This document shows positions 34,134 to 49,670 of a stretch of DNA of 64,000 nucleotides, piece after piece. The notes beneath the pieces are model-generated. The model was not told the origin of the DNA. It was given only the letters and a program-made list of their open reading frames with translations, and made no database searches. The stretch comes from Promethearchaeota archaeon Loki_b32. Lineage in GTDB: Archaea > Asgardarchaeota > Lokiarchaeia > Sigyniarchaeales > SOKP01. Location: positions 64,001 to 128,000 of the forward strand of contig NJBH01000008.1 of NCBI GenBank assembly GCA_005223125.1. The letters run 5' to 3'. The position numbers were made by a program, and so were the translations under genes. Within the stretch, counting starts at the first letter, position 1; the number at the start of each line of letters is the position of its first letter.

Positions 34134-34655
34134 ATGCCACAAAAGTTCATTCTTAAGATCCTTACGGCAGGGGAAGGAGGAGTGGGGAAAACAACACTAC
34201 TCCATAGGTATGTAGAGGGGAAATTTTCAGCTGAAACTAAAATGACAATTGGTGTAGAGTTTTTCTTGAAAGAGACGCAAATTGACTCGAATCACTGCAC
34301 TCTACAACTCTGGGATTTTGGTGGTCAAGAGCGGTTTAGATTTTTACTTGAAAGTTACGTATTAGGAGCAAAAGGAGCACTTCTCATGTTTGACCTCACA
34401 AGGTTAATGAGTCTTGAAAATTTGCAGCAATGGATTAACATTGTTCGGAAAGGTGATCCAAATCTTCCTGTTCTCTTTGTAGGTACAAAATTGGATTTAA
34501 CCGATGAGATCCAGATAGATGACGATTATGCTATGTCTTTTTTAAATGAATTTAACTTGATTGATTATATAAAAATCTCTTCAAAAACGGGCGAAAATGT
34601 TGGTACAGTTTTTGAAATGTTAACAAGAAATATATTAGAGCGCCAAGCCTATTGA
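34134..34655 (+). CDS. Rab-like small GTPase
   Basis: GEGGVGKT, TIGVEF, WDFGGQE, TKLD and SSK. Confidence 0.93.
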   Translation: MPQKFILKILTAGEGGVGKTTLLHRYVEGKFSAETKMTIGVEFFLKETQIDSNHCTLQLWDFGGQERFRFLLESYVLGAKGALLMFDLTRLMSLENLQQWINIVRKGDPNLPVLFVGTKLDLTDEIQIDDDYAMSFLNEFNLIDYIKISSKTGENVGTVFEMLTRNILERQAY

Positions 34656-35095
34656 AATCCAAGAATAGTGTAGTGGTTATCGATTCTAATTTTATATTAC
34701 TTCCTTTTCAGTTTAAAATAGATTATTTTAACGAAATAAGATTAAAGCTTGAAGGAAAATTGAAATTTATCATATATCAACAAATTTTAAACGAATTAGA
34801 TGCAAAAAAAAGAAGAGAATCCAAAGCTACTAAATTTGCATCGTTTCTTGAATCGGGTTTATTATACTTAGAAAGGAACAAAGAGAAATATGACATTGAA
34901 ATAATGGAAGATATCAAAAATGATAACGAGACTACTGATGATTTTATACTAAGATTGTCAGTAAAGCTTAAGAATGTAGGTCAAACTGTTTATTTAGCAA
35001 CTAATGATTCAGAATTGCGTAAAAAAGCAAAAAGAATAAGGATTGGAATAATTTTTTTAAGACAAAAGAAATATTTGTCTTTTGAAAGAGCTTAA
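34652..35095 (+). CDS. PIN-domain protein (Fcf1/Utp24-like)
   Basis: IDSNF...EL...TDD...ATND.EL...LRQKK. Confidence 0.85.
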   Translation: MKSKNSVVVIDSNFILLPFQFKIDYFNEIRLKLEGKLKFIIYQQILNELDAKKRRESKATKFASFLESGLLYLERNKEKYDIEIMEDIKNDNETTDDFILRLSVKLKNVGQTVYLATNDSELRKKAKRIRIGIIFLRQKKYLSFERA

Positions 35096-35214
35096 AAAAA
35101 ATATAAAATAATTAGTACATATTAAAGTTTTAACTAAAAATATTAATACATATTTAACCCTATATTAACCAATAATCGAGGTTTTATATTTATTTACTGA
35201 TTTGATGGAGAAGA

Positions 35215-35730
35215 ATGTCCAAAGCGATATTATTAAAGATTATCACGGCAGGAGATGGTGGTGTTGGCAAGACAACACTCCTTTATCGATATATAGAAGG
35301 GAGATTTCTAGCTAATACGCGTATGACTATTGGTGTGGAATTCTTTCTCAAAGAGCTTAATATAGAAGGAAAAAAAATATTACTCCAAGTTTGGGATTTT
35401 GGTGGACAGGATCATTTCAGACCTCTATTAAAGAATTATGCTGTGGGAGCAAGAGGAGCATTACTACTTTTTGATCTCACCAGACCATCAAGTTTAGAAC
35501 GAATTGAGCAATGGGTTGATATTTGCAGAGGGGGGACTCAAGAGATTCCTATCATTTTCTTAGGAACAAAATTAGATCTAGAAGATCAAATAACAATATT
35601 CGATAGTTTTGCTTTGAAATTTAAGGAACAATATGGTTTTTTTGATTATTTAAAGATTTCTTCGAAAACTGGAGAAAATGTTAATTTAGCATTTGAACTA
35701 TTGGCAAGAGAACTTGTAAAAGACTTATAA
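35215..35730 (+). CDS. Rab-like small GTPase
   Basis: GDGGVGKT, TIGVEF, WDFGGQD, TKLD and SSK. Confidence 0.93.
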   Translation: MSKAILLKIITAGDGGVGKTTLLYRYIEGRFLANTRMTIGVEFFLKELNIEGKKILLQVWDFGGQDHFRPLLKNYAVGARGALLLFDLTRPSSLERIEQWVDICRGGTQEIPIIFLGTKLDLEDQITIFDSFALKFKEQYGFFDYLKISSKTGENVNLAFELLARELVKDL

Positions 35731-39876: not shown

Positions 39877-41160
39877 ATGCCAAAGTTTATGAATCAAGCT
39901 ATTAATGATGAAATACTCGATAAACTGAGCCTTAAAAATCGATATTCCTTTGTGAATAATAACTTAATGGCTTTACTTTCACCGGAGCAGTTCAATCACT
40001 TTAAAAAAGTTCAAAAATTCTGCATGAGGTTTGAGAAAAAGAATGAAATCACTCATGGTCCTGAAGAAGACGTATATGATTGGATTCCTACTTTCGGAGC
40101 TGAAGGTTATATCACAAGAGCGCATAACTTTGAGATGATCGATGTAGAATATGAAAATTATGGTGCTGTAGCGGATTTTCTTAGATATATTGCTATAGAT
40201 AATTTTGATCCTCAGTTTGCTATGGGTAGTGGAGCTACAGTTTTAGCTATAAATCCTATTTATGATCATCATGAAAACATTCCCGGTAGACTTGAAGCGC
40301 TAAAAGATTTGGTTACAGGTCAATCACCAGGATGTATTTGTATTACTGAGCCTGAAAGAGGCTCAGACGCCGTTCACCAATTAACCACCTGTGACGAACA
40401 GGAAGATGGAAGTTATATCTTAAATGGGGAGAAAATTTATAACACAAATGCTCCTAAATCCAAATGGGCTGTTGTATACGCCACCGCTGAAGCGAATAAT
40501 GGAAATTTAATGGCTCAATTTTTAGTTAATACCAATTGGGAAGGATGGAATTGCGAAAGAGTCGGAATACCTTACGTTGATAAGCTTTATCTTGGTCATG
40601 AATATTTAGAAAATTTAAGGGTACCAAAGGAATATATATTAGGACCTGTTGGTAAAGGGAGAGAACATCTTTTTGAAGGATTGGTTCCAGAAAGAATTGG
40701 GATTGCTTGCGGAGCTATATCACAATGCTGGGGTGCTGTATCTCATGCGGCTATTTATGCTAATATGAGAAGGCAATTTGATCAGGAAATATTGAAATTC
40801 CAAGGTGTTGGATTTCTTTTAACAGACCTCTGGGCAAAGACGACGAATTTAACCTTAGGTTTACTTAAATTTTGCGAAGAGTATGATAAGAAGATGGAAA
40901 AGTTCGAAGGTCATATCCCAGCTAACATTTCTAGAGCATTAGTTGCATCCGCAAGTCAATTTAAATATCATTGCACAAACCTTTCTAAAGAAATCTGTTA
41001 TGAAGCTGCCAATTTAATGGGTGGTGCAGGACTCTCTGATAACACATTAATGAACGATTATGTGAACATCTCTAGAATTCAAGAAATTGTCGGAGGTTCA
41101 AGACAAATTCAGCAATACATTATGTCAATGGCGTTAAGGCAGCTATTCAAAATGCTTTAG
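39877..41160 (+). CDS. Acyl-CoA dehydrogenase, paralog 1
   Basis: ITEPERGSD, LNGEKIYNTNA, RRQF...FQGV and MGGAG. Confidence 0.93.
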   Translation: MPKFMNQAINDEILDKLSLKNRYSFVNNNLMALLSPEQFNHFKKVQKFCMRFEKKNEITHGPEEDVYDWIPTFGAEGYITRAHNFEMIDVEYENYGAVADFLRYIAIDNFDPQFAMGSGATVLAINPIYDHHENIPGRLEALKDLVTGQSPGCICITEPERGSDAVHQLTTCDEQEDGSYILNGEKIYNTNAPKSKWAVVYATAEANNGNLMAQFLVNTNWEGWNCERVGIPYVDKLYLGHEYLENLRVPKEYILGPVGKGREHLFEGLVPERIGIACGAISQCWGAVSHAAIYANMRRQFDQEILKFQGVGFLLTDLWAKTTNLTLGLLKFCEEYDKKMEKFEGHIPANISRALVASASQFKYHCTNLSKEICYEAANLMGGAGLSDNTLMNDYVNISRIQEIVGGSRQIQQYIMSMALRQLFKML

Positions 41161-41325
41161 ATTTCGGTTGATTTTGCTAATTTTCAACACAAACTATTTT
41201 TTCTTTTTTTTTAATTTATAGAATTATTTTTTATTTTTCGATTTCAGGATAAAAATTTAGAATCTGTTTAATAATTATTCTATAAAACAAGAATTGTTTA
41301 TAATTAAAATTGGTTTTCTAATACT

Positions 41326-41790
41326 ATGAAAGAAAAAGATTCTCTAGTTATAAATTTTGGAGAGGCACATTCTGTTAACAGAGGTGTTCGTGTTTGTCTT
41401 AATGTAATAAAGCCTTGTTATAATCTTGGATGGTTTCCTTATAATAGCTTGACTTGGTCATTCTGTTATCGAGAGGAGATATCTAAATATATATGCGCTC
41501 TTTTCAATAGAGATTGTTCTGTATTTTATTTATCAGCTGAGTTGACAAAAAATTCTCCTTTAATCACAAAACCTCCAAAAGAATTAAAAGAAGATTTTCA
41601 GGATCCATTTTATAAAAAAACATTTTTTAGGAGAAGAAGGATTACTCCAAGAGGATACTCTAAACCATGTCATCAACTAGAGTTTTGCCCCTACAACTCT
41701 TTAACCGATGCTCTTTCACAGTCTAAAAAGATTACTGAATTTACTTGCAAGTTATTTAATAAAGAATGTCCTGTTAAATATCTTGGATAG
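41326..41790 (+). CDS. Hypothetical protein with two Cys-rich internal repeats
   Basis: KPC..L...PYNSLT...C.LFN..C.V.YL occurs twice. Confidence 0.7.
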   Translation: MKEKDSLVINFGEAHSVNRGVRVCLNVIKPCYNLGWFPYNSLTWSFCYREEISKYICALFNRDCSVFYLSAELTKNSPLITKPPKELKEDFQDPFYKKTFFRRRRITPRGYSKPCHQLEFCPYNSLTDALSQSKKITEFTCKLFNKECPVKYLG

Positions 41791-41932
41791 GATGATTCTG
41801 AGAAGGAATACCTCGAGACAGGAATAACTCCAATTTATTAAAATTTTTTAATCTATTTTCATCTACTTGTTTTTTTTAAGAAAGGAAAAAAAATATCAAA
41901 AAAGAAAGAAAATTAAAAAGTATTCTATTATT

Positions 41933-43231
41933 CTATGAAACAGACATCTTGTACAATGTTCTCAATGAAAGAGACATGATATATTGCTGTATCTGTCTCG
42001 AACCTCCTAATATTTCCTGAATCCGAGAAATATTTAAATAATCCTGCATTAATGTATTGTCACATAAGCCTGCCCCTCCCATAAGGTTAGCAGTTTCATA
42101 GCAAACTTCTTTTGAAAGTGCTGTAGCTTGATATTTAAATTGGCTTGCAGAAGCAACCATTGCTTGAGAAATATTACGAGGTATATCTCCTTCAAATTTC
42201 TTGAATTTCTCATCAAAACCCTCACAAAATTTAAGCAAACCAAAGGTTAGATTTGTTGTTTTTGCCCATAAATCTGCAAGTAAAAACCCTACACCTTGGA
42301 ATTTCAATATTTCCTGATTAAATTGCTTTCTCAAGTTTGCATAAATTACCGCATGAGATACAGCACCCCAACATTGGGCAATCGCTCCACAAGCAATCGC
42401 AATTCTTTCCGGGACAAGCCCTTCAAAAAGATGTTCTCTACCTTTTCCAACGGGTCCTAATATATATTCCTTTGGTACTTTTAGATTATTAAACTTCTCT
42501 CTACCTATAAATATTTTAGGAGTCCAAGGTACTCCAACTCGTTCGCAACTCCATCCTTCCCAATTGGTATTTATTAAGAATTGAGCCATCATATTTCCAT
42601 TATTCGCTTCAGCGGTAGCATAAGCGACAACCCATTTGGATTTTGGAGCATTTGTATTAAATATTTTCTCTCCATTTAAGAGATAACTTCCATCTTCCTG
42701 TTCCTCGCACGTGGTTAACATATGAACCGCATCTGAGCCTCTTTCAGGTTCAGTAATAAGAATTGCGCTTGGTGATTGACCTGTAACCAAATCTTTTAGC
42801 GCTTCAAGTCTAACTGGTATGTGTTCATGGTGATCATAAATAGGATTTATAGCTAAAACTGTAGCTCCACTACCCATAGCAAACTGTGTATCAAAATTAT
42901 CTATAGCAATATATCTAAGAAAATCTGCAGCTAATCCCCACTCAGGATAATCTAAATCAATCATTTCAAAAGTATGTTGTCGAGTGATGTATCCCTCTGC
43001 TCCAAATGCAGGAATCCAGTCATATATGTCTTCTTCAGGACCGTGAGTGATTTCATTTTTTTTCTCAAATCTTAGACAAAAACGCTGAACTTTCCGAAAA
43101 AAATTAAATTGTTGTTGAGATAATATTGGAGTCAAATTATTATTAACGAAAGAATATCGATTTTTAAGGCTCAATTTCTCAAGAATCTCATCATTTATTA
43201 CTTGGGTCTTAAATTTTTGCTTTTCTGCCAT
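41933..43231 (-). CDS. Acyl-CoA dehydrogenase, paralog 2
   Basis: Same motifs as paralog 1. Confidence 0.93.
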   Translation of the reverse strand: MAEKQKFKTQVINDEILEKLSLKNRYSFVNNNLTPILSQQQFNFFRKVQRFCLRFEKKNEITHGPEEDIYDWIPAFGAEGYITRQHTFEMIDLDYPEWGLAADFLRYIAIDNFDTQFAMGSGATVLAINPIYDHHEHIPVRLEALKDLVTGQSPSAILITEPERGSDAVHMLTTCEEQEDGSYLLNGEKIFNTNAPKSKWVVAYATAEANNGNMMAQFLINTNWEGWSCERVGVPWTPKIFIGREKFNNLKVPKEYILGPVGKGREHLFEGLVPERIAIACGAIAQCWGAVSHAVIYANLRKQFNQEILKFQGVGFLLADLWAKTTNLTFGLLKFCEGFDEKFKKFEGDIPRNISQAMVASASQFKYQATALSKEVCYETANLMGGAGLCDNTLMQDYLNISRIQEILGGSRQIQQYIMSLSLRTLYKMSVS

Positions 43232-43424
43232 ATTTATTCATCCCTTAATATATTTATTTTGATTTTAATTTTATAAAATAGAATTTCAAATTAATTATAA
43301 ATTTATAGTCCATAATAAGGTTCATCCAAATTCTTTAAATATTTTTATTTTCATTTGATTGAAAAATAAAATTAATATGAAATATATTATGAAAATACAA
43401 TAAAAACAAAGGAAGTATAAAAAA

Positions 43425-44711
43425 ATGGAAAAACGATTTGAAACTCAAGTTATAAATGATAAGATTTTAGAAAAATTAAATCTTGCCAACAGGTATAAAT
43501 ATCTCAATGAAAATCTATTTTCAATTCTTTCTGATGATCAATTTACCTTTTTAAAAGAAGTTCAAGGCTTTTGTTTAAAATTTGAAAAAGAGAATAGTAT
43601 AACACATGGACCAGATGAGGATATTTACGATTGGTATCCCTCCTTTGGGGATCAAGGATATATAACTCGTCAACATAATTTTGAATGCATTGATTTGAAT
43701 TATAAAGAATATGGAATGGCTATGGATTTTATGAGAATATTAGCAATGGATTTTTTTGATCCTCAATTTACTATGGGAAGTGGAGCTACTGTTATTTGCA
43801 TTAATCCTATCTATGAACATCATGAAAACATACCTATAAGATTAGAAGCTTTAGAGGAAATGGTGAGAGGAAAATCACCAGGATGTTTATTAATTACCGA
43901 ACCTGAGAGGGGTTCAGACACCGTTCACATGTTAACAACCTGTGAGGAGCAGGAAGATGGTAGTTTTATCTTAAATGGGGAGAAGATTTTTAATACCAAT
44001 GCGCCAAAGTCAAAATGGGCGGTCGCTTATGCTACAGCAGAAAAAAACAATGGCAATTTGATGGCTCACTTCTTAATAAATACCAATTGGGAAGGATGGA
44101 ATTGCAAACGAGTTGGAATACCATGGACTCCTAAATTATACCTGGGAAAAGAAAAATTAGAAAACTTGAAAGTTCCAAAGGAATATGTACTTGGTGGAAT
44201 AGGGAAAGGAAGGGAACACCTTTTTGAAGGCTTAGTACCTGAGAGAATTTCAATAGCAGTGAGAGGAGTAAGTGAGAGTTGGGGGGCATTAGCACATGCC
44301 ATTATCTATGCTAATTTGAGAAAACAATTTGATAAAGAAATCCTACTTTTCCAAGGAGTAGGGTTTACTTTGACAGATCTTTGGGCAAAAACCACAGCGC
44401 TTACTCATGGAATTTTAAAGTTCTGTGAAATCTATGATACCAAAATGGAAAAGTATGGAGGTAAGCTACCTGAAAACATATCACGTGCGATGGTTGCCTC
44501 AGGAAGTCAATATAAATATAATTGTGCTTTGTTATCTAAAAAAGTGTGTTATGAAGCAGCTAACCTCATGGGAGGAGCTGGTCTATGCGATAACACGTTG
44601 ATGCAAGACTATCTAAATATATCAAGAATTCAGGAAATTATTGGGGGATCTAGACAGATACAAAATTTCATTATGTCAAGAAACTTAAGAAATCAATTTA
44701 AGAATTTGTAA
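43425..44711 (+). CDS. Acyl-CoA dehydrogenase, paralog 3
   Basis: Same motifs as paralog 1. Confidence 0.93.
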   Translation: MEKRFETQVINDKILEKLNLANRYKYLNENLFSILSDDQFTFLKEVQGFCLKFEKENSITHGPDEDIYDWYPSFGDQGYITRQHNFECIDLNYKEYGMAMDFMRILAMDFFDPQFTMGSGATVICINPIYEHHENIPIRLEALEEMVRGKSPGCLLITEPERGSDTVHMLTTCEEQEDGSFILNGEKIFNTNAPKSKWAVAYATAEKNNGNLMAHFLINTNWEGWNCKRVGIPWTPKLYLGKEKLENLKVPKEYVLGGIGKGREHLFEGLVPERISIAVRGVSESWGALAHAIIYANLRKQFDKEILLFQGVGFTLTDLWAKTTALTHGILKFCEIYDTKMEKYGGKLPENISRAMVASGSQYKYNCALLSKKVCYEAANLMGGAGLCDNTLMQDYLNISRIQEIIGGSRQIQNFIMSRNLRNQFKNL

Positions 44712-46152: not shown

Positions 46153-46833
46153 TTAATGCTCTTGTGTTTCTTTTAGTGTCTCTAGAATTTCAGAAATTTC
46201 TTCTTTTTTGCGATATTTTTTGACTATTTTTTTATAACTTTTAACTGATTTTTTGATTAGTTCTAGAGTCTCTTTTGGTACATTTTCTTCAGGAATTTCA
46301 AGATCCTGTATCATAAAGTCTAAACCAACAGTTAATTTATAATTTTGTTCAAAACTTTTTTTTGTAAATGTTCTAATTAAGGATGATTTTCCTACAGCAG
46401 CAGCTCCAGCTAATAAAATCTTAAATCTGAAATGGTTAGAATCGACAATTTCTCCAAGCCGGGGTTTTAAATCTAACAATGCTGTAATAGCTAATCTATA
46501 AAAAAGTCTCTCTACGTTTTTATTTTCTAACGCAGATGTTTCTAAATATTCAAATAAGTAATATTGATTTACTTTTTGAATAATTTTTTTTCTTGGAATC
46601 GTCTCTCCTATGCTTTCTTTTAAATCAGTTTTATTTCCAACTAAAAAAATTGGTATATTACCAGATTGCTCTCGGAGTTCATTGAAATAATCATCAATTT
46701 CATCAAATGTATCAGGGCGACTTAAATCAAAAATCAGACCGACTGCAGCAATACCTTTAAAAAAATCGGTTTTAAAGAAGTTAAACCGTTCTTGTCCTCC
46801 AGTATCCCATAGTGATAAAGTAATTTTTAACAT
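46153..46833 (-). CDS. Circularly permuted Rab-like small GTPase
   Basis: Motif order WDTGGQE (G3), NKTD (G4), ETSA (G5), GAAAVGKS (G1), TVGLDF (G2); GAGGT SD upstream. Confidence 0.85.
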   Translation of the reverse strand: MLKITLSLWDTGGQERFNFFKTDFFKGIAAVGLIFDLSRPDTFDEIDDYFNELREQSGNIPIFLVGNKTDLKESIGETIPRKKIIQKVNQYYLFEYLETSALENKNVERLFYRLAITALLDLKPRLGEIVDSNHFRFKILLAGAAAVGKSSLIRTFTKKSFEQNYKLTVGLDFMIQDLEIPEENVPKETLELIKKSVKSYKKIVKKYRKKEEISEILETLKETQEH

Positions 46834-46859
46834 ATTTAGGTTCCTACCTCATTGATGTC

Positions 46860-47564
46860 TCATGATTCCCAAATAGCAATATATTCATCTAAAATTTTAT
46901 ATACATTATTAAATCCCATAACTTTATAAAATTCTTTAAGGCTTTTTTCATCAAGATTCCATTGTGATCTCATTTGAAAAGAATTAATACCATCGTTATC
47001 TAACAATAAAAAATCAATGATTTTCAATAAAGGTTTCGGCAAGTGTTTACCGAAAAATATAACAATTTTAAATAATTTATCACGAGCAGAGATTTCTTTT
47101 GGGTTTATTACATATGGCTCACATACAACAATTTTATTTGCAATCTTTTTAGCTATATTAATTAAATCAATATGTTTAGGGTAAATATGATGCAATATAT
47201 CACAAAGTACAATTACATCCTTCTTTTTCCCTTGATAATCTTGAAAATCAAAAATATTTTTATGACGCAAGATGATTTTGGTTAATTTTATATTTCTTTT
47301 TTTCAATTCTTTTTTTCTAATTCGTTTTAGAAAACGATGGTTAAGATCTGCTCCTTCATATTCTATTGCGGGATGCAAAAACCGCATTAGGTATCCTGTA
47401 CCGCATGGCAAATCTAAGACTTTCTTTGGCCCTTTACCTATAAAAGTTGCAATTGTGGAAAATTTTTTATCTTGATCATATAATCTACGAGTTACTGCGT
47501 TATAGAGCCACCCACTACGATACATTAAACTTCTAAAACCAGCAGTTTCTATTTTTAAAACCAT
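46860..47564 (-). CDS. Class I SAM-dependent methyltransferase
   Basis: VLDLPCGTG, GAD and DILHH. Confidence 0.85.
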   Translation of the reverse strand: MVLKIETAGFRSLMYRSGWLYNAVTRRLYDQDKKFSTIATFIGKGPKKVLDLPCGTGYLMRFLHPAIEYEGADLNHRFLKRIRKKELKKRNIKLTKIILRHKNIFDFQDYQGKKKDVIVLCDILHHIYPKHIDLINIAKKIANKIVVCEPYVINPKEISARDKLFKIVIFFGKHLPKPLLKIIDFLLLDNDGINSFQMRSQWNLDEKSLKEFYKVMGFNNVYKILDEYIAIWES

Positions 47565-47627
47565 CCTTAATATTACAATATTAACGTGAGATTTAAGTTT
47601 ATAATAAAAAAAAAGGAATTTTTAGAT

Positions 47628-49670
47628 TTAGGGTGGTGAAAGTAAATTCATTTTGTTTTCGACATCTGTGTTTAATTCTTTGATTTTTTTTTCTAATATT
47701 TTAAGTTCTTTTTTGATTTCTTCAAACCTGCTTTCTTGAGTGTTCAATTTTTTTATATATCTTTCTTTTAATGAAATGGATTGACTATCTTCCCCTAAAA
47801 CCGAGATATTTTCTCTAAGTCTTACTTGTTCATCAGTCATTATGTCCCTTTCTTCATTTAGTTTATCATCTTTAGCTCTTAAATCATTTAATGTTTGAAT
47901 TAATCCCGCAATTTCCTTTAATTTGGTTTCTAGATCTGGATCAATGAATTTTTGTTTTACATAAAAACCTACTCGTTTTAGAAGATCTTCTTTGTTAAAG
48001 TTCCATATATAATTACTTGAGTAATTTTCTCTTTGTTCTTTTAATTTAAAAACTACCGCATCCTTAGGTTTTAAGGTTAATTTGAATCGCCAGTAATTAG
48101 TAGTTTCTTCGGGTTCAACTGGTTTTTCTATAACTTTATATTCATATGTCTTAGGATGATCAAGATAAAGCTCCTTTTCTTGCTCAGTTTTATTTTTGAT
48201 CTTATAAGTGGTCGTCATGTTTGTGTAATAATATTCATAAGAGTAACCGCTGCCAAATGTAACTCTATGTACACTTAAGTTTTCAGATTCTTGTTCATGA
48301 GTGATAATTACTGCTTGTTCTATTGCATAGTTTAACAATCTCGTATCTCCTTTATTTAAGAAGGGAATAATTGCTTCTCCAGCAAGATTATCATCGTAAA
48401 TGATTGTAGCAGGTCCTGTTTCTAGTGTTAAATTAGTATTATTGGTAATTTCTAAACATGCATTAGGATTTTTATCGTGGTCGTTTTTATTGTATAAAAG
48501 AATTCTATTTGATTTAATCGACTCTGTAAGGATTGGAACTAAAGCAGATTGTTTTCTTTTGATTGTTACTGGATTTGAAATATTATATTCAAACAACTCT
48601 CCTAAATCTTTTGTTTGGGTTTTAACTTGAGATTTCACTTTATCGTAGATTTCTGTATCAGACATAACACTTTGCATGCGTCCAAATCCGCCACCTGCTG
48701 GAGCAGGAGGAGGGCGGGCACTTTTACTCATAGTTCTAGCTCTTTTTTTGGATGGTATTGCCTCCATTTCTGCCATTGCATAATCATCAAATTTATCCAT
48801 TTCTAAACCCTCTTCAATCTCTGTTGGTCTAGCACTTAAAATTTTTGGTGGTTGAATAACAGGGCGCTGAATGAATATCGGCCTATAAAAGGCGTAAATG
48901 AAGCTTACTGGAAGACCTGCAACTAGACTTAATTCAATATCTTCCCAATCCTGGTTAGTCGTATTTTCGATGAGACTCCAACCAGAAAGTAGACATTTTT
49001 GCTCTAATTCTTGTTGTTTACTCATAATCAATCGATAAGATGTTTTCCAGATTGGACTTTCACGAATATAAGATACAAAAATGTTTCTTTCAGCAGCATC
49101 ATCTCCACCAGACTCACAATTTATTATAATTTTTTTTGCATCCTTTTTTTTCCCAGCAATTACGGTGTCTAGGAAGAATTTCAAATCTTTTTTAATCTCT
49201 TCATTTAATATTTCAAGAGATTTAATTTCTGAGAAGTTATATTTGGCAATCAAATCATCTTCTTGTAATAAAATCAATAATTTCTCGGTAATTTTTTCGA
49301 CCTTACTCAATTTTTCTACAAATTCTATTCCCATTATCTTTCCTGAAACTTTTTTAGCACCACCTATGGTTAAATTTACATCAGCTCCTTTAATTTGTGT
49401 TATAAGAGAGGAAAAAGAATCCCTATCAGGAATATTTAGCATAATAGATTTTAACAATTGAGAAGTTTCTAAAGCAGCATCATAAGAAATCGATGAAACG
49501 TATCCCTTTTCGCTTGTATCTAGCACAAAAAGTGATTTTAATATATCATTCATTTCATCAATCTTAAATTCAAGTTCAAATTTCCCAGTACCTTTTAAGA
49601 TACCTTCAAGAATGTAATAGGATACGCCGTGTTTAAATATAATTACTCTTTTTACATTTATTTTTGACAT
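47628..49670 (-). CDS. DUF4139-like protein
   Basis: RV..FKHGV.Y, NDILKSL, P.WK.SYRL, EN.T..DW....LSLVAG.P and GELFEY; C-terminal coiled coil. Confidence 0.8.
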   Translation of the reverse strand: MSKINVKRVIIFKHGVSYYILEGILKGTGKFELEFKIDEMNDILKSLFVLDTSEKGYVSSISYDAALETSQLLKSIMLNIPDRDSFSSLITQIKGADVNLTIGGAKKVSGKIMGIEFVEKLSKVEKITEKLLILLQEDDLIAKYNFSEIKSLEILNEEIKKDLKFFLDTVIAGKKKDAKKIIINCESGGDDAAERNIFVSYIRESPIWKTSYRLIMSKQQELEQKCLLSGWSLIENTTNQDWEDIELSLVAGLPVSFIYAFYRPIFIQRPVIQPPKILSARPTEIEEGLEMDKFDDYAMAEMEAIPSKKRARTMSKSARPPPAPAGGGFGRMQSVMSDTEIYDKVKSQVKTQTKDLGELFEYNISNPVTIKRKQSALVPILTESIKSNRILLYNKNDHDKNPNACLEITNNTNLTLETGPATIIYDDNLAGEAIIPFLNKGDTRLLNYAIEQAVIITHEQESENLSVHRVTFGSGYSYEYYYTNMTTTYKIKNKTEQEKELYLDHPKTYEYKVIEKPVEPEETTNYWRFKLTLKPKDAVVFKLKEQRENYSSNYIWNFNKEDLLKRVGFYVKQKFIDPDLETKLKEIAGLIQTLNDLRAKDDKLNEERDIMTDEQVRLRENISVLGEDSQSISLKERYIKKLNTQESRFEEIKKELKILEKKIKELNTDVENKMNLLSPP

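Follow-up and report, generated by a model that had tools for sequence, protein, structure and literature searches.

A circularly permuted Rab-like small GTPase conserved in one order of Lokiarchaeia, with a permutation probably independent of eukaryotic cpRAS

The stretch of DNA analysed here (the window) comprises 64,000 nucleotides of a contig of Promethearchaeota archaeon Loki_b32, and carries on its minus strand an open reading frame for a small GTPase whose sequence motifs stand in a permuted order (Table 1). Translation of the frame yields the sequence quoted in the preliminary description, a protein without any cysteine, the tail included; the C-terminal Cys motif for geranylgeranylation, a feature of eukaryotic Rabs, is absent. 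It is the only permuted copy in this genome, which also encodes about 52 canonical small GTPases. The stop codon of the preceding gene ends at 46860, leaving 26 nt to the GTPase ATG, and a Shine-Dalgarno-like GAGGT lies in this gap. The open frame amounts to 231 codons in all, with only five free upstream of the ATG; loss of an N-terminal part, already considered unlikely in the preliminary description on account of the GAGGT and the short gap, is therefore excluded.

Table 1. Features of the permuted GTPase gene and its upstream neighbours (positions are those of the window).
Feature	Position	Strand	Basis
Circularly permuted Rab-like small GTPase, whole ORF, 226 aa + stop	46153..46833	-	conserved family; dN/dS vs orthologues
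GAGGT, Shine-Dalgarno-like motif, 12 nt 5' of the GTPase ATG	46846..46850	-	sequence reading
Residues 1-120: β3, G3/switch II (DTGGQ, catalytic Gln14), β4-α3, β5 with G4 (NKTD), α4, β6 with G5 (ETSA), α5	46474..46833	-	Pfam Ras 47-157
New linker from α5 to β1, residues 121-133, KPRLGEIVDSNH	46435..46473	-	alignments A1, A3; model
Residues 134-181: β1, P-loop G1 (GAAAVGKS), α1, switch I with G2 Thr168, β2	46291..46434	-	
C-terminal tail, residues 182-226, one long helix	46156..46290	-	model helix 187-225
Two co-directional genes upstream of the GTPase	46860..49670	-	Pfam; context conserved within genus only
SAM-methyltransferase-like gene, 234 aa, 26 nt upstream of the GTPase	46860-47564	-	Pfam
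680-aa protein of no clear family; faint DUF4139 match, C-terminal coiled coil	47628-49670	-	

The G motifs follow one another as G3-G4-G5-G1-G2, every one present once: G3 at D10 (D10-TGGQ), G4 at N67 (N67-KTD), G5 at S100 (S100-A), G1 at G143 (G143-AAAVGKS) and G2 at T168. The protein opens with MLKITLSLWDTGGQERF, which contains strand 3 and G3, and passes through NKTD and ETSA; after a short linker, FKILLAGAAAVGKSS provides strand 1 and G1, and is followed by KLTVGLDF (G2 and strand 2) and a charged tail. The motif set of the Ras superfamily (GxxxxGK[ST], switch I Thr, DxxGQ, NKxD, SA[KL]) is thus complete, in permuted order. The Pfam Ras profile (PF00071) matches at E 1.4e-35 in two stretches, residues 3-115 corresponding to profile positions 47-157, and the P-loop part falls on the opening positions of other GTPase profiles. 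If residue 181 is connected to residue 1, G1 and G3 regain a spacing of 48, which is the value seen most often among the 52 canonical small GTPase ORFs of this genome; this puts the cut exactly in the β2-β3 turn, with no element doubled or missing. Motifs, Pfam stretches and restored spacing agree in this respect with the preliminary description, which had proposed a permuted Rab-like G domain broken at the β2-β3 hairpin and containing each element once. Its further proposal, that the two switches lie at opposite ends of the chain, holds for switch II, which is at the N-terminus, but switch I, though close to the end of the G domain, is followed by a tail of 45 residues.

The Rab-type VGLDF and WDTGGQERF can be read in the sequence while the remaining RabF-type positions diverge, and for this reason we call the protein Rab-like only. 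In the P-loop, Ala occupies the positions of both Gly12 and Gly13 of Ras, which could slow hydrolysis; P-loops of this Ala-Ala type are common in canonical Asgard paralogues. The relocated segment, residues 134-181, has 51% identity to the N-terminal part of a canonical paralogue encoded in the same genome (C30:24222). The linker that joins the two parts is itself conserved, R125, G127, E128 and D131 being invariant in alignment A1 and G127 present in 80 of the 80 rows of alignment A3.

An AlphaFold2 model built from 18 near-identical sequences had a pLDDT of 62 and was discarded; one built from 80 more diverse permuted sequences reached pLDDT 85.4 and pTM 0.81, and is uncertain only in switch II (residues 14-20) and switch I (161-170). 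Its secondary structure runs from β3 to α5, then through the linker, β1, α1 and β2 to a helix at 187-225. Foldseek and VIA are sequential aligners, in which no single match spans the whole permuted domain, and we therefore used two overlapping sets of matches. Rab, Rho and Ras structures (Rab23, RhoA, Rab3C etc.) align to model residues 1..120 with Z about 12 and rmsd 1.8-2.3 Å. Solved permuted GTPases—YlqF, YqeH, RsgA and the Lsg1 type—align to residues 14..179, crossing the α5-to-β1 junction; VIA-align gave Z 11.0 for YlqF 1puj (142 residues), 11.4 for YqeH 3h2y, 12.1 for chain Cd of the pre-60S ribosome structure 8pv1 (145 residues) and 11.2 for YjeQ 2yv5. Taken together, the two sets place every element of the model as in a normal G domain, so that a closed domain of six strands and five helices, completed by the C-terminal β1 and β2, is what is predicted in silico.

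The gene belongs to a large family. A word-indexed search returned 335 clusters (90% identity) at E <= 0.001, of 207-277 aa, with identities of 74-98% in the best 120, and a profile search returned 381 clusters at E <= 1e-20. All aligned members begin Mxx[IV]TLS[LI]WD, with 1-3 residues before [IV]TLS[LI]WD, and all have the same motif order. Residues D10, G13, Q14, N67, K68, D70, S100 and A101, together with G143, G148, K149, S150 and T168, are invariant in alignment A1; among the 184 permuted members fetched, G4 and G5 are kept in every one and the G2 Thr motif in 181. The dN/dS ratio against orthologues is 0.09-0.16 (computable dS in eight of nine), and synonymous sites are nearly saturated. 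Among proteins of 397-2000 aa, the search gave no close tandem form from archaea. Tandem two-domain matches of the profile search were considered as possible intermediates and set aside; the one checked comes from a plant and has two G domains of Rab type. Among foraminifera, a Rab7-like transcript model of 243 aa (P0212; EukProt, Bolivina argentea) reads G3-G4-G5-G1 and was rejected as an archaeal relative, its source being a eukaryote transcriptome set; a chimeric or tandem transcript, and not a truly permuted gene, may be behind it.

In an even sample of the phylum, 18 of 201 genomes contain permuted copies, all of them in one Lokiarchaeial order, and the 163 genomes searched from the other 25 Asgard families gave none; in the genome searches only 8-19 of about 100 candidates per genome were scored, and weak copies could be missed. 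Across the order itself the family is present in 67 of 154 genomes. The window's genus accounts for most of these (49 of 53 genomes, the four misses being 58-88% complete), and the other genera vary: 5/5 in g3, 4/10 in g6, 1/42 in g4, 0/6 in g7 and 0/4 in g2. The sole g4 match (G099:C223:4342-4944), 79% identical to the window's copy, is cut by the end of a 4.9-kb contig and may therefore be bin contamination from the window's genus. Near-identical proteins from metagenome-assembled genomes (P0040, P0056, P0091, P0005 and P0055) were labelled Odin-, Thor-, Hod- and Hermodarchaeota by their submitters; these labels conflict with a one-order distribution and are probably unreliable, or the bins mixed.

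The surroundings of the gene are conserved over a shorter range. Of seven loci in other genomes of the genus, six have the 680-aa protein, the methyltransferase and the permuted GTPase in this order, while the seventh retains the 680-aa gene and has no methyltransferase; in the window a gap of 63 nt separates these two upstream genes. The order is absent from the other three genera examined, where the upstream genes differ. The possibility that the 680-aa protein is the counterpart of a 917-aa upstream protein in another genus was rejected, the two being unrelated. A convergent HD-domain gene is present in six of the seven loci, with acyl-CoA-dehydrogenase-like genes beyond it in most. Since no partner gene is conserved beyond the genus among the loci examined, the neighbourhood gives no function.

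Two further observations concern gene arrangement. Adjoining the HD-domain gene in the window are three paralogous genes of about 430 aa (39877-44711; two on the plus strand and one on the minus) whose sequences look like those of acyl-CoA dehydrogenases; across genera, no other neighbour of the permuted GTPase is as widely conserved as this block. Canonical small GTPase genes in the window's genome often stand head-to-tail in arrays of two or three, as at about 34134-35730 (+) in the window and on two other contigs (C50:2539-4460 and C49:43012-45900). The C50 array packs three genes into 2 kb, and some of the canonical genes nearest to the permuted one are among them.

A search covering 1.8 billion cluster representatives divided the permuted family into two subfamilies, A, to which the window's copy belongs (about 210-285 aa), and B (280-755 aa). 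Subfamily B proteins start with IWDLGGQERF, have TSAKTG at G5, and are extended by a spacer rich in Pro, a conserved domain that no Pfam family matches, and hydrophobic helices at the end. The long permuted relatives (P0137, P0141, P0142, P0149, P0150 and P0282-P0289 of subfamily B, and the locus L025:5986-7305) have in common a conserved C-terminal module of about 130 aa, which reads RKTTVFY..QMNP..NKLSV ... FPGC..VP..PLDARKD ... TPTKVVKQT before the hydrophobic helices; it has no match in Pfam, and its Atlas neighbours are only unnamed Promethearchaeota clusters. An Atlas search with the window's GTPase likewise gave only unnamed archaeal clusters, and its nearest canonical relatives in metagenomes are unnamed too.

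The tail beyond β2 is amphipathic and very basic over residues 186-210, where the hydrophobic moment is 0.6-0.69 and stretches of 18 residues carry net charges as high as +10. In orthologues the same basic helix is followed by a spacer and then a transmembrane helix, whereas the window's copy, like many close relatives, ends after the basic helix. At the C-terminus, 36 of 168 members of subfamily A have a transmembrane helix, as do 14 of 16 of subfamily B; among them are three orthologues of the window's genus as well as those of the three other genera examined. With the anchor thus found on both sides of the deepest split in the family, the simplest reading of the short form is loss: the window's copy would have had a transmembrane helix and lost it.

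The closest sequence relatives of the family are canonical Asgard Rab-like GTPases, such as the paralogue C30:24222 and the Thorarchaeota Rab of PDB 7EZB, the latter among the best PDB matches of the permuted protein. They have in common with it a P-loop of the GAAAVGK type and the absence of a C-terminal Cys for prenylation; they differ in having the G1-G5 order and a length of about 175 aa, whereas the permuted proteins have a basic helix, to which many of them add a transmembrane helix. Asgard Rabs have been described as without a membrane-anchoring extension (Tran et al. 2024, PMC10933270). Word searches in the main papers on Asgard GTPases, that one included, found no mention of permuted small GTPases, and full-text literature searches found no description of them in Asgard archaea.

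Permuted G domains are also found in YlqF-RbgA, YqeH and RsgA (YjeQ/YloQ), ancient and universal ribosome-assembly factors with extra RNA-binding domains. Their structures align with our model across the α5-to-β1 junction (Z 9-12 over 122-145 residues), but their motifs run G4-G5-G1-G2-G3, the break falling between G3 and G4, whereas G3 comes first in the protein described here; their identity to it is only 12-21%, and its scores against the NCBIfam YlqF and YqeH models are far below the cut-offs. The preliminary description had attributed this same G4-G5-G1-G2-G3 order to cpRAS, and had concluded that the break point in the Lokiarchaeial protein was new. That was mistaken: the cpRAS domain is defined precisely by the order G3-G4-G5-G1-G2 and a break in the β2-β3 turn, and has been regarded as eukaryote-specific (Elias and Novotny 2008, Biol Direct 3:21, PMC2430557). 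The archaeal family and cpRAS thus have an identical permutation and break within the same superfamily. cpRAS, however, derives from the Ras family and forms part of proteins about 900 aa long that also contain a VWA domain or a COG2373-like region; the archaeal family is Rab-like, with a basic helix or a transmembrane anchor and no Pfam domain other than the GTPase in its longer members, and its copy in the window is a stand-alone protein of 226 aa.

Whether the two go back to one permutation event, by descent from Asgard archaea to early eukaryotes or by gene transfer, which would make the gene an archaeal cpRAS, was judged from several comparisons. Two Branchiostoma CPRas proteins, found among the longer relatives, are collinear with the archaeal protein through the junction at 29-31% identity, and a 2026 paper (PMC13393502) places CPRas 'potentially' in the last eukaryotic common ancestor; both points, like the identical order and break point, count in favour of a single event. 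Against it, each family is closer to canonical GTPases than to the other. When un-permuted, the window's protein has 45% identity (135 bits) to C30:24222 of its own genome and 32% (74 bits) to cpRAS, and many canonical GTPases are closer to cpRAS than the archaeal family is. The 60 best PDB sequence matches of the permuted GTPase are all Rabs, the Thorarchaeota Rab included (E about 1e-24 to 1e-21; about 90 bits), and those of cpRAS are H-Ras and R-Ras2 (E about 1e-48; 168 bits for H-Ras). The signatures follow suit, with TVGLDF and WDTGGQERF of Rab type in the archaeal family and the Ras-type switch I YDPTIEDSY in cpRAS. A maximum-likelihood tree calculated from 110 G domains, un-permuted or canonical, unites subfamilies A and B in a single clade (SH-aLRT 100) within a weakly supported group of canonical Asgard GTPases, and leaves cpRAS apart on a long branch. 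A tree uniting the archaeal family with cpRAS was nonetheless not rejected by the AU test (p 0.415, lnL difference 4.4) on a data set without canonical Ras references, so that independence is argued here from similarity ranks and signature motifs. The confinement of the family to a single Lokiarchaeial order, with 0 of 163 genomes positive in the 25 other Asgard families, also argues for a late, local origin. We consider a common event quite improbable: the archaeal permutation is most likely independent of that of cpRAS, and convergence, judged from these sequence comparisons, is strongly favoured rather than proven.

Two other readings were considered. The gene could be a decaying remnant, a strain-specific fragment of a tandem gene, or an artefact of assembly or annotation, giving no working protein; tandem arrays of canonical GTPase genes do occur in this genome, and multi-G-domain proteins turn up elsewhere among the profile matches. 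Yet order and termini are common to hundreds of independent assemblies, 49 of the 53 genomes of the genus have one copy each, dN/dS is about 0.1 with all catalytic motifs kept, the open frame stops five codons upstream of the ATG, and among longer proteins the search gave no close archaeal tandem form, the one tandem match checked being from a plant. We regard this reading as extremely unlikely. Relatives with the same order and N-terminus, of the kind that the preliminary description proposed to look for, number at least 380 clusters. A folded but inert pseudo-GTPase, serving as a nucleotide-independent scaffold, or a protein whose tail binds RNA, DNA or ribosomes, is somewhat less implausible, though still unlikely. 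The two Ala residues at Ras positions 12 and 13, the extremely Lys-rich tail, and the fact that the nearest junction-spanning structural matches are YlqF, YqeH, RsgA and Lsg1-type proteins of ribosome biogenesis all lean that way. Set against them are the invariance of Gln14, Thr168, the P-loop Lys-Ser, NKxD and SA under strong purifying selection, the occurrence of an identical P-loop in canonical paralogues, and the transmembrane helix that follows the same basic helix in orthologues and so places that helix at the membrane; YlqF-type proteins, at 16-21% identity and permuted differently, resemble the GTPase in fold alone. The Lys-rich helix by itself could equally bind nucleic acid or mediate coiled-coil pairing.

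Motif order, family conservation, purifying selection and the anchors of relatives, all of them in silico observations like the fold, lead us to think it likely that this is a functional permuted Rab-like GTPase of single Lokiarchaeial origin, probably apart from cpRAS, acting as a switch held at the membrane. The chain would run from strand 3 and switch II to helix 5, across the conserved linker of 13 residues into strand 1 and the P-loop, and on to switch I and strand 2, closing into an ordinary G domain that would bind and hydrolyse GTP as the canonical paralogues do. A canonical Asgard Rab-like gene would have been permuted a single time, in some ancestor inside one Lokiarchaeial order. 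The trimmed tandem duplication suggested in the preliminary description, with two neighbouring paralogues fused and cut back, is a plausible route, because the nearest canonical paralogues stand in head-to-tail arrays.

With the chain so permuted, the C-terminus no longer lies where helix 5 ends but at the tip of the interswitch hairpin. The tail of a canonical small GTPase leaves from the end of helix 5; here it would be attached at the interswitch hairpin beside switch I, and the nucleotide switch would sit at the cytoplasmic face of the cell membrane, with its tether close to its own switch regions. The window's copy, without a transmembrane helix, would bind the membrane peripherally through its cationic helix, and we infer both this binding and any coupling of switch to tail. 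That the purpose of the permutation is to weld the switch by its C-terminus to the basic helix and transmembrane anchor, close by switch I and strand 2, so that the nucleotide state is passed directly to the membrane tail, is a tentative idea that we think on balance doubtful; if true, it would amount to Arf-like logic reached by a different route, and the family would be the first among Asgard small GTPases to have its membrane anchor built in.

The topology itself is already known from cpRAS, and what is new is probably an independent, membrane-directed archaeal variant of it. The G3-G4-G5-G1-G2 permutation was once argued to be structurally forbidden and exists in eukaryotes (PMC2430557); the same break has very probably been reached a second time, in the archaeal lineage closest to eukaryotes, which would make the β2-β3 turn a recurrent and tolerated cut site of the G domain. 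A subfamily of small GTPases with transmembrane or cationic-helix tails bears, moreover, on how Asgard GTPases may make contact with membranes without prenylation.
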